Sequence record: PZ195123.1
Length of the DNA: 3,207 bases
From: a phage
Direction: 5' to 3' (one strand)
The translations under genes and the position numbers were made by a program. The stretch's first letter is position 1; every line of letters starts with the position of its first letter. Below, in pieces: positions 1 to 3,207 of the stretch. The notes beneath the pieces are model-generated. The model made no database searches. It was not told where the DNA came from and was given only the letters and a program-made list of their open reading frames with translations.

Positions 1-108
1 TCATCCTTGAAGGCGCTAGGAATGTTTTGCATAAGCGACTCATTTCTGCAGTCTTTTCACCATGCCGTTAGGTTTAGGTGACGGTATATTCCATATACCG
101 GAGGATCT
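1..108 (+). promoter_or_regulatory. 5' untranslated leader of the phage RNA, probably lacking its extreme 5' end; contains the Shine-Dalgarno GGAGG at 100-104, 4 nt upstream of the maturation-gene ATG
   Basis: No intact ORF with a homology-like translation before 109. GGAGG at 100-104 followed by ATG at 109-111. The window does not begin with the G-rich 5' end typical of levivirus genomes (established knowledge), so the true terminus is probably missing. Confidence 0.7.
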
Positions 109-1281
109 ATGTTTCCGAAGTCAAATATCGACAGAAATTACAAGGTTAAGCTTATTACTTACGACAAGAAAGGGAAACTTGTTTCCGACGACTCTTTCGA
201 GCAAGTCGAAAACTATCTCTATCAAAATCGTTCGAATACGTATAAACCTGGTTATATCCGTCGCGACTTTCGAAGACCAACTAACTTCTGGAACGGCTAT
301 CGCTGTTTCAATCAGCCAGTTGGTACTTTCACTCGGAAACTCTCTGATGGTGGGAGACAAGTTGCTGATTATGGTATCGTAAACCCTAATAAGTTTACAG
401 GTAACAGTCAGCACTTGGGGGACAACATGGTTATTTACCCTGGTCCCTTTTCTATAAATATTGATCAGCGTGCTTCCGTCGAAGTCCTCAATAAACTTTC
501 ACAATCAAACCTCAATATTGGGGTTGCGATTGCTGAAGCTAAGATGACTGCTTCGTTACTCGCTAAACAATCTATAGCTCTCATCAGAGCCTACACTGCC
601 GCAAGGCGCGGTAATTGGCGAGAGGTGTTTTCACAACTCCTCATCTCCGAACACCGTTTCAGAGCTCCCGCTAGGGACCTCGGAGGTCGATGGCTCGAAC
701 TGCAGTACGGTTGGTTACCTCTCATGAGTGATTTGAAAGCTGCATATGATTTGCTTACGCAAACCAAACTGCCCGCTTTCATGCCCTTGAGGGTTACCCG
801 TACCGTTGGCGGAACGCACAATTATAAAGTGCGCAACGTCGAATCTGCAGGGGATACTTGGTCCTATAGCGATCGTTTATCGGTGAATTACCGAATATGG
901 TATTTCATTTCCGATCCACGTCTCGCATGGGCTAGTTCCCTCGGGCTTCTTAACCCTTTAGAAATTTACTGGGAAAAGACGCCCTGGTCGTTCGTCGTTG
1001 ACTGGTTCTTACCTGTCGGTAATCTTATAGAAGCCATGAGTAATCCTCTTGGCCTCGACATTATTTCCGGCACGAAGACCTGGCAACTCGAATCAAAACT
1101 TAATGCATCGCTTACTGCTCCGGGTTGGTCAGGAACTGCAAAGCTGACTGCCTATGCTAAAGCATATGACAGATCTACTTTCTATTCCTTTCCTACTCCA
1201 TTGCCGTATGTGAAGTCTCCACTTAGTGGGCTTCACTTAGCGAACGCATTAGCCTTAATCAACCAACGCCTGAAAAGGTAA
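109..1281 (+). CDS. mat: Maturation (A/assembly) protein, 390 aa; pilus-binding minor virion protein of ssRNA phages
   Basis: ORF track 109..1281 (390 aa) with SD GGAGG upstream. The translation has blocks I recognise as conserved with the MS2 A protein (e.g. [65 protein letters not shown]). Length and position as first gene fit a levivirus. Confidence 0.95.
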
Positions 1282-1285
1282 TTAC

Positions 1286-1289
1286 GGAG
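1286..1289 (+). promoter_or_regulatory. Probable Shine-Dalgarno (GGAG) for the coat gene, 8 nt upstream of the ATG at 1298
   Basis: GGAG at 1286-1289 in the 16-nt intergenic spacer between the mat stop (TAA 1279-1281) and the coat ATG (1298-1300). Confidence 0.6.
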
Positions 1290-1297
1290 TTAGCCAT

Positions 1298-1690
1298 ATG
1301 GCAACTTTACGCAGTTTCGTACTCGTCGATAATGGCGGTACGGGGAATGTTACTGTCGTTCCTGTTAGCAATGCCAACGGCGTCGCTGAGTGGCTTTCTA
1401 ATAACTCGCGCAGTCAAGCTTATCGCGTGACTGCCAGTTATCGTGCGTCAGGCGCGGACAAGCGCAAATACACCATCAAACTTGAGGTACCGAAAATCGT
1501 TACTCAAGTTGTTAATGGCGTTGAGCTGCCTGTTTCCGCATGGAAGGCTTACGCCTCTATTGACCTGACCATCCCTATCTTTGCTGCAACCGATGACGTG
1601 ACTGTTATTTCCAAGTCACTCGCCGGCCTGTTCAAAGTTGGGAACCCTATCGCTGAAGCTATCTCTTCGCAGAGCGGCTTCTACGCGTAA
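1298..1690 (+). CDS. cp: Major coat (capsid) protein, 130 codons; also the translational repressor of the replicase gene
   Basis: ORF track 1298..1690. The translation MATLRSFVLVDNGGTGNVTVVPVSNANGVAEWLSNNSRSQAYRVTASYRAS... matches from memory the levivirus coat fold signature (FVLVDNGGTG, NGVAEWLS.NSRSQAY, ELTIPIF-like TIPIFAA) and is closest to phage GA coat protein. Stop TAA at 1688-1690. Confidence 0.97.
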   Translation: MATLRSFVLVDNGGTGNVTVVPVSNANGVAEWLSNNSRSQAYRVTASYRASGADKRKYTIKLEVPKIVTQVVNGVELPVSAWKAYASIDLTIPIFAATDDVTVISKSLAGLFKVGNPIAEAISSQSGFYA

Positions 1691-1881
1691 TGGGTCTGAA
1701 AGCAAAACATAAGGAAAACCTATGTTCCGATTCACAGAGATCGAAAAGACTCTATGTATGGATCGCACTCGCGATTGTGCTATCCGATTTCACGTCTATC
1801 TTCAGTCACTGGATTTGGGGTCTTCTGATCCTCATTCTCCGGACTTTGATGGACTTGCCTACCTTCGTGATGAATGTCTAA
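1690..1881 (+). CDS. lys: Lysis protein (single-gene lysis protein, L-type), 63 codons, overlapping the coat stop and the 5' part of the replicase gene in a different frame
   Basis: ORF track 1690..1881. Its ATG (1690-1692) overlaps the coat stop as TAATG. The product has a basic hydrophilic N-terminus (MGLKAKHKENLCSDSQRSKR) followed by a long hydrophobic stretch (LYVWIALAIVLSDFTSIFSHWIWGLLILILRTL), the typical architecture of levivirus L proteins. Position between coat and replicase is as in MS2/GA-type phages. There is no obvious SD, which fits termination-reinitiation coupling. Confidence 0.85.
   Translation: MGLKAKHKENLCSDSQRSKRLYVWIALAIVLSDFTSIFSHWIWGLLILILRTLMDLPTFVMNV
1707..1725 (+). 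promoter_or_regulatory. Coat-protein translational operator hairpin enclosing the replicase start codon (ACAUA-A-GG-AAAA-CC-UAUGU)
   Basis: Seen in sequence: 1707-1711 ACATA pairs with 1721-1725 TATGT, A1712 is unpaired, GG 1713-1714 pairs with CC 1719-1720, and the loop is AAAA 1715-1718. This is the same architecture as the MS2 operator ACAUG-A-GG-AUUA-CC-CAUGU, with loop adenines at -4 and -7 relative to the replicase AUG at 1722. An AAGGA SD (1711-1715) is embedded in the hairpin. Confidence 0.85.
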
Positions 1882-3172
1882 CTAAACATCCTTCACTTGG
1901 AGACAGTAATTCGGACGCACGCCGTAAGGAATTGGCATATGCCAAACTTATGGATAGTGATCAAAGATGCAAAATCCAAAACAGTAACGGATACGACTAC
2001 TCTCATATCGAGAGTAGCGTACTGAGTGGTATACTCAAGACTGCTCAGGCCCTTGTGGCAAACTTACTTACGGGTTTTGAATCTCACTTCCTGAACGATT
2101 GTTCATTCTCCAATGGAGCCTCACAAGGGTTCAAGTTGCGGGATGCAGCGCCGTTTAAGAAGATCGCTGGGCAAGCAACCGTTACAGCTCCTGCTTATGA
2201 CATCGCCGTGGCCGCCGTTAAAACGTGCGCTCCGTGGTATGCTTATATGCAGGAAACGTATGGCGATGAAACCAAATGGTTTCGTCGGGTATACGGCAAC
2301 GGTTTGTTTTCTGTTCCGAAGAACAATAAAATAGATCGGGCTGCCTGTAAGGAGCCTGATATGAATATGTACCTTCAGAAGGGGGCGGGATCTTTTATAA
2401 GAAAACGCCTCCGCTCCGTCGGTATAGATCTTAACGATCAGACGCGCAATCAGGAATTAGCCCGACTCGGCAGCATTGACGGTTCACTTGCTACTATTGA
2501 TCTTAGTAGCGCTAGTGATTCCATCTCTGACCGCCTTGTCTGGGACCTTCTTCCGCCGCACGTTTATTCATACCTCGCTCGTATTCGTTCGTCTTTCACT
2601 ATGATCGACGGGCGTTTACACAAGTGGGGTCTATTTTCTACCATGGGGAATGGCTTCACATTCGAACTCGAGTCCATGATCTTTTGGGCTCTAAGTAAGA
2701 GTGTTATGCTATCCATGGGTGTTACTGGCTCATTAGGCATCTATGGTGACGATATAATCGTCCCCATTGAATGTGCCCCAACTCTCCTTAAGGTACTATC
2801 CGCTGTGAACTTTCTTCCTAATGAAAAGAAGACGTTCACTACGGGTTACTTTCGCGAAAGTTGTGGTGCTCATTTCTTTAAAGGTGCCGACATGAAACCT
2901 TTTTACTGCAAGCGGCCAATGGAAACCCTTCCCGATGTCATGTTGCTATGCAACAGGATAAGAGGTTGGCAGACCGTTGGTGGAATGTCAGATCCGCGGC
3001 TTTTCCCGATTTGGAAAGAGTTCGCTGATATGATTCCGCAGAAGTTTAAGGGTGGATGCAATCTGGATCGCGATACTTACCTCGTTTCACCGGATAAACC
3101 TGGTGTCACATTGGTTCGTATCGCTCAGGTTCGCTCTGGTTTTAACCACGCGTTCTCGTACGGCCATGAAAA
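1722..3172 (+). CDS. rep: RNA-dependent RNA polymerase (replicase beta subunit), 3'-partial; about 483 codons readable before the N run
   Basis: Manual translation from ATG 1722 in frame 0 runs without a stop to 3172: MFRFTEIEKTLCMDRTRD...GSSDPHSPDFDGLAYLRDECLTKHP...VPKNNKIDRAACKEPDMNMYLQKGAGSFIRKRLRSVGIDLNDQ...LATIDLSSASDSISDRLVW...FSTMGNGFTFELESMIFWA...GIYGDDIIVP...FRESCGAHF...GGMSDPRLF.... It contains the polymerase YGDD motif (2742-2753) and long blocks I recall as near-identical to MS2 replicase. It is missing from the ORF track only because it has no stop in the window. Confidence 0.95.
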
Positions 3173-3207
3173 NNNNNNNNNNNNNNNCTNNNNNNNNNNN
3201 NNNNNNG
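3173..3207. other. Run of ambiguous bases (N) with isolated calls (CT at 3188-3189, G at 3207); masked or unresolved 3' portion
   Basis: Directly visible. It interrupts the replicase ORF, and the 3' end of the replicase plus the 3' UTR are absent from the window. Confidence 0.99.

Follow-up and report, generated by a model that had tools for sequence, protein, structure and literature searches.

The RNA hairpin at positions 1706-1726 on the plus strand of PZ195123.1, whose whole stretch of 3207 bases is called the window here, is almost certainly the translational operator of the replicase gene in a GA-like RNA coliphage of group II (Emesvirus japonicum). Direct observations are the structure, the register in which it sits on the replicase AUG, the sequence identity to the operator of phage GA and the identity of the coat protein encoded by the same genome; binding is taken from the literature, where coat binding has been published for the identical GA operator sequence (Gott et al., 1991, as cited in PMC3561173), while by homology with MS2 the hairpin would also act as a site of repression in vivo and as a nucleus of assembly. 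The element is already known in every respect raised, its ambiguous adenine included, and is a copy of a classic RNA-protein recognition system, in which the GA operator was annotated in 1986, binding studies followed in 1991 and an NMR structure in 1998. Its practical value is that of a positive control, confirming that the window is the genome of a group II levivirus in which the order of the genes and the layout of the regulatory elements are canonical, and it illustrates that a real regulatory hairpin can be recognised from raw sequence alone, as the original prediction of this element showed.

Four genes lie on the plus strand of the window, namely those for the maturation, coat, lysis and replicase proteins:

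109-1281, plus strand: maturation gene, from the list of open reading frames (ORFs).
1298-1690, plus strand: coat protein gene, whose product is identical in 129 of 129 residues to the crystallised GA capsid protein (PDB 1GAV) and is the presumed cognate repressor.
1690-1881, plus strand: lysis gene, from the ORF list, the annotation of relatives and the translation; its frame crosses the hairpin.
1722-3172, plus strand: replicase (beta subunit) gene, the presumed regulated target, truncated by a run of N at the window end.

In megablast comparisons with phage records, the window has 94.5% nucleotide identity to phage GA (X03869 / NC_001426) over positions 1-3170, up to the run of N, about 95% identity to the BZ13 strains DL10 and DL20, and about 85% identity to KU1 and BZ13 T72. 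On these sequence grounds it is to be placed as a strain of Emesvirus japonicum (GA/BZ13), the classical group II F-specific RNA coliphages. A group II assignment had been drawn earlier with the hairpin as support, and it holds, resting far more on the nucleotide identity to GA than on the loop sequence. The ORF that starts at 1722 is free of stops up to the run of N and matches GA replicase in 469 of 483 amino acids, and the annotated replicase starts of relatives align at the ATG at 1722-1724, which bears out the reading of this region as the replicase initiation site. As to the extent of the record, window position 1 corresponds to GA position 29, the run of N occupies 3173-3206 (with "ct" at 3188-3189) and is followed by a final "g" at 3207, and the genome is incomplete: the hairpin at the 5' terminus is missing, as are some 270 nt at the 3' end.

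With the A of the AUG numbered +1, A1712 is -10, A1711 is -11, A1718 is -4 and A1715 is -7, and the parts of the hairpin are as follows:

1706-1726, plus strand: complete operator hairpin of 8 bp with one unpaired A and a 4-nt loop, equivalent to 1733-1753 of GA X03869, from the folds and GenBank annotation.
1706-1710, plus strand: 5' strand of the lower stem, AACAU, pairing with 1722-1726 (pair probabilities 0.72-0.99).
1711-1712, plus strand: AA facing the single U1721, one A being paired and the other being the unpaired purine (-11 or -10).
1713-1714, plus strand: 5' strand of the upper stem, GG, with pairs G1713-C1720 and G1714-C1719 (pair probabilities 0.94-0.95).
1715-1718, plus strand: tetraloop AAAA, -7 to -4, with A1718 as the -4 adenine and A1715 as the -7 purine.
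1719-1721, plus strand: 3' strand of the upper stem, CC, then U1721, which pairs with A1711 or A1712.
1722-1724, plus strand: replicase initiation codon AUG, inside the 3' strand of the lower stem and pairing with 1708-1710.
1710-1715, plus strand: putative Shine-Dalgarno element UAAGGA, wholly within the hairpin and taking in both ambiguous adenines.

The Shine-Dalgarno consensus UAAGGAGG is the complement of the 3' end of 16S rRNA, and UAAGGA at 1710-1715 matches it over six bases.

The original prediction had placed a 19-nt hairpin at 1707-1725 (letters ACAUAAGGAAAACCUAUGU, also given as ACATAAGGAAAACCTATGT), with an AAAA loop, a GG/CC upper stem and the AUG at 1722-1724 within it, and each of these points is confirmed from the sequence. 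The lower stem has five base pairs, formed by 1707-1711 with 1721-1725, and is lengthened by the extra pair A1706-U1726, which is gained when the 19-mer (minimum free energy, MFE, -3.3 kcal/mol, z = -2.3) is extended to a 23-mer (-4.9 kcal/mol, z = -3.0). At -3.3 to -4.9 kcal/mol the hairpin is weak; it is nevertheless kept in the MFE structures of 46-, 81-, 141-, 451- and 903-nt contexts and in the fold of the full 3172 nt, and none of the contexts, from 19 nt up to 3172 nt, yielded a rival structure that abolishes it. The proposed check by folding, for which a more stable competing structure would have been damaging, thus came out in favour of the hairpin in every context, the 46-nt one included. 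Partition functions, computed for contexts of up to 903 nt (the 3172-nt fold being an MFE only), give probabilities of 0.94-0.99 for every pair except the outermost, with U1721 split between its two partners.

The closest known counterpart is the operator of phage GA (X03869 / NC_001426, 1733-1753), to which the hairpin is identical in 21 of 21 nucleotides (19 of 19 for the shorter form), at the same genomic position and with the same overlapping lysis frame, in a surrounding genome that is about 5.5% different; among the differences in the flanks the nearest is at C1735 of the window, where GA has G. The GA record X03869 labels its copy "pot. stem loop structure; pot. binding site coat protein". 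The operators of MS2, R17 and fr share with the window a 19-nt hairpin with a 5-bp lower stem and a GG/CC upper stem, an unpaired purine two pairs below a four-nucleotide loop, A at both -4 and -7, and the AUG in the 3' strand in the same register. They differ in the loop, which is AAAA in the window but AUUA in MS2 and AAUA in fr, so that the contrast with MS2 drawn earlier is borne out; in the -11/-1 pair, which is A-U in the window and G-C in MS2 and fr; and in predicted stability, the window hairpin standing at -3.3 and that of MS2 at -5.3 kcal/mol. Because the -11/-1 pair is A-U rather than G-C, the window hairpin has a register ambiguity of two adenines against one uridine (AA/U) that is absent from MS2.

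A more distant likeness is to the operator of PRR1 (Persson, Tars and Liljas, 2013), which has in common with the window the core AUAAGGA...CCUAUG and an AUG in the 3' strand. Its sequence, CCAUAAGGAGCUACCUAUGG, also sets two adenines opposite a single U and therefore has the same bulge-register ambiguity as GA, whereas its loop is one of five nucleotides (AGCUA), its genus is a different one (Perrunavirus) and its coat protein is different. In Rfam the sole relevant match is to the family of the MS2 operator hairpin (RF02359); it spans 1705-1725, keeps the register and scores 18.1 bits (E = 0.46), short of the 40-bit gathering score, with the alignment confined to model positions 16-36 out of 36; we attribute the low score to the MS2-type 5' flank in the model. 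The window hairpin is thus a structural homologue of the MS2/fr operator and not a scored member of the MS2-centred family RF02359.

Taken against the traits of Emesvirus operators (levivirus groups I/II), the hairpin has the replicase AUG within the 3' strand of its lower stem, a single unpaired purine on the 5' side at -10, or at -11 as for GA, and a loop of four nucleotides in which -4 is A and -7 is a purine, and the same genome encodes the cognate coat protein with a conserved RNA-binding surface. Within that group it is of the group II (GA) type, the 19-mer being that of the GA, KU1 and BZ13 operators, AAAA loop and -11/-1 A-U pair included. In the MS2/R17 type (group I), position -5 holds a pyrimidine, either U or the more tightly bound C, and the bulged A lies unambiguously at -10, on top of a G-C pair, whereas in the window -5 is A1717 and the bulge is ambiguous above an A-U pair, a mismatch that is the expected group II difference. 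Identity to the hairpin annotated in GA, the architecture shared with MS2 and fr, and the cognate coat gene just upstream together uphold the class that had been proposed, that of levivirus replicase operators.

The ambiguity of the bulged adenine, also foreseen in the original prediction, is exact in the computed energies. The conformers with A1711 out and with A1712 out come to -3.3 kcal/mol each, and in the ensemble U1721 is partnered by A1711 with a probability of 0.51 and by A1712 with one of 0.48; because both adenines face U1721, the unpaired purine is free to sit at -11 or -10 without energetic cost. The motif falls into the "group II bulge loop" class, in which two identical adjacent purines stand opposite one pyrimidine and the position of the bulge is ambiguous (Dishler et al., 2015, PMC4408803); this is a general class of RNA structure rather than a functional family. 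The coat-protein binding site of GA, its AA/U bulge included, has an NMR structure (PDB 17RA; Smith and Nikonowicz, 1998), which Dishler et al. list as panel O and group with structures whose loop-distal nucleotide is unpaired and intercalated, and in the model hairpins of those authors, too, the A farther from the loop is unpaired in the free RNA (PMC4408803). The loop-distal unpaired nucleotide of the GA-site structure, which is of the free RNA, corresponds to A1711 (-11) in the window. The construct used for that NMR work reportedly carried the loop of MS2. When protein is bound, the bulge would be at -10, by homology with MS2, in which a G-C pair at -11/-1 leaves no ambiguity. Reportedly, the GA coat protein tolerates the unpaired purine at either -10 or -11, as the original prediction also held for GA-type operators, and makes no distinction between the two bulge positions; a Ka of about 7 x 10^7 M^-1 has reportedly been measured for GA (Gott et al., 1991). 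Its reported needs are a paired stem with an unpaired purine, a four-base loop, A at -4 and a purine at -7, and it is reportedly not strongly selective for a pyrimidine at -5.

The ambiguity might itself be under selection, giving a longer Shine-Dalgarno match together with an unpaired adenine in either register, with the relaxed positional specificity of GA-type coat proteins as a co-adaptation, although we consider this unlikely. Were it so, UAAGGA would supply six contiguous Shine-Dalgarno bases as against about four in MS2, and the AA/U core of PRR1 would be owed to common ancestry or to convergence.

The coat protein of the window has in common with that of MS2 the RNA-site residues V29, T45, S47, R49, K57, T59, K61 and Y85, and it carries S87 and K55, as does GA, where MS2 has N87 and N55. 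The N87 to S difference was reportedly linked to relaxed specificity at -5 by Lim, Spingola and Peabody (1994). A PDB search by sequence gave only two entries for the GA coat protein, neither of which has RNA in its name. The -4 adenine and the unpaired purine, both present in the window hairpin, are critical for binding in MS2, GA (Gott, 1991) and PRR1, as summarised in PMC3561173. On a separate matter, mature coat residues 59 and 79 (codons 60 and 80 when the initiator Met is counted) are Thr59 and Val79 in the window, in PDB 1GAV and in KU1, unlike the GenBank GA reference X03869, which has Ala59 and Gly79; residue 59 aligns with Thr59 of MS2, in the adenine-binding pocket, and the mismatches of the X03869 coat protein may be strain differences or old sequencing errors.

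By analogy with MS2, a dimer of the coat protein made from the gene just upstream would bind the folded hairpin late in infection, recognising the unpaired stem adenine and the loop adenines at -4 and -7. Because the hairpin holds both the Shine-Dalgarno element and the AUG, the bound dimer would occlude the whole ribosome-binding site, blocking 30S binding and so shutting off replicase synthesis, and the same high-affinity complex of coat protein and RNA would also be the starting point for assembly of the capsid around the genome. The weight could conceivably fall on the latter role, the hairpin being mainly a primary packaging or assembly-nucleation signal and translational repression being secondary or minor in group II. 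The equivalent hairpin of MS2 (TR) is the highest-affinity packaging signal, and contacts between coat protein and RNA in virions overlap it (PMC4836477, PMC4751978). Packaging and repression are, however, not mutually exclusive, the sequestration of both the Shine-Dalgarno element and the AUG makes sense only for translational control, and GA-specific assembly data were not found; a hairpin devoted mainly to packaging is, in our judgement, very improbable.

Conservation and chance bear on a different doubt, namely that the hairpin is a mere by-product of a triple constraint of coding and initiation (the lysis ORF, the replicase Shine-Dalgarno element and the AUG) and does not serve to bind protein in this strain. 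All 12 group II sequences compared, namely six GenBank genomes, four IMG/VR contigs and two metagenome contigs, have an identical 19-mer; among them are GA, BZ13 DL10, DL20 and T72, KU1, the IMG/VR contigs, one of which copies the GA genome, and the metagenome contigs. The collection was assembled by an exact-match scan for the 19-mer and, independently, with an anchor placed 20 nt 3' of the hairpin, the two metagenome contigs being retrieved through the anchor outside the hairpin. Without any variation in the hairpin among the 12 sequences, there is no covariation within group II, and the sole comparative support is one compensatory change at -11/-1, where the G-C of MS2 and fr is A-U here and the pair is kept. 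Moreover, group II lineages that are about 15% different elsewhere hardly vary in the lysis/replicase overlap (about 1705-1880), a pattern that fits a constraint of coding in two frames; the lysis frame crosses the hairpin as the codons K-H-K-E-N-L-C and adds a coding constraint on the operator. Because almost the whole overlap is equally invariant, conservation of the hairpin cannot be credited to RNA structure alone. Nor is the existence of the hairpin by itself significant. Its class combines a lower stem of 5 bp and an upper one of 2 bp with an unpaired purine and an RNNA loop; chance would supply 0.20 such hairpins per strand of the window's size, and one or more are present in 19% of shuffles. 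Near-invariance beyond the hairpin, this frequency in shuffles and the weakness of the stem are what a by-product would lead one to expect. Against it, the sequence is identical to that of the GA operator, a published binding site of the coat protein (cited in PMC3561173), and the architecture with its exact register on the AUG is common to MS2, fr, PRR1 and M despite divergence in sequence, the compensatory replacement of G-C by A-U included. The only plus-strand instance of the class in the window occupies the exact MS2 register on the replicase AUG, a placement whose chance, judged from the shuffle expectation, would be roughly 0.2 in 3150 positions. Upstream conservation, furthermore, ends sharply two bases 5' of the hairpin, at a 3-nt insertion of the KU1-type sequences. 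A by-product devoid of protein binding is thus extremely unlikely, and the hairpin is best read as the operator of the replicase gene.

An exact copy of the 19-mer also occurs at 7377-7395 of IMGVR_UViG_3300042090_000749 (36.7 kb); its flanks are unrelated, and, given the great size of the database, it was taken as a coincidence.

Immediately upstream of the operator, GAAAGC (1698-1703) pairs in the full-length MFE fold with GCUUUC (1393-1398), which lies within the coat gene some 95 nt downstream of its AUG. This layout is that of the "Min Jou" long-range interaction of MS2, which couples replicase to coat translation. Both strands of the predicted pairing are invariant in 11 group II sequences, without covariation, and the U1697 to A change of KU1-type sequences would add one A-U pair to it.

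At the other end of the coat gene, the coat stop UAA (1688-1690) and the lysis start AUG (1690-1692) share one base (UAAUG, 1688-1692), which is the GA-type arrangement and is consistent with translation of the lysis gene by ribosomes that re-initiate after coat termination. A KU1-type metagenomic sequence, OGVH01001890.1, has an 18-nt insertion after the coat stop and carries CAGUAAUGGG where KU1 and T72 have CAGCAUUGGG, about 28-19 nt upstream of its operator copy and aligned to 1686-1695 of the window. Its lysis start is in consequence AUG rather than UUG, with the UAAUG motif restored, and looks like an intermediate between the GA type and the KU1 type.
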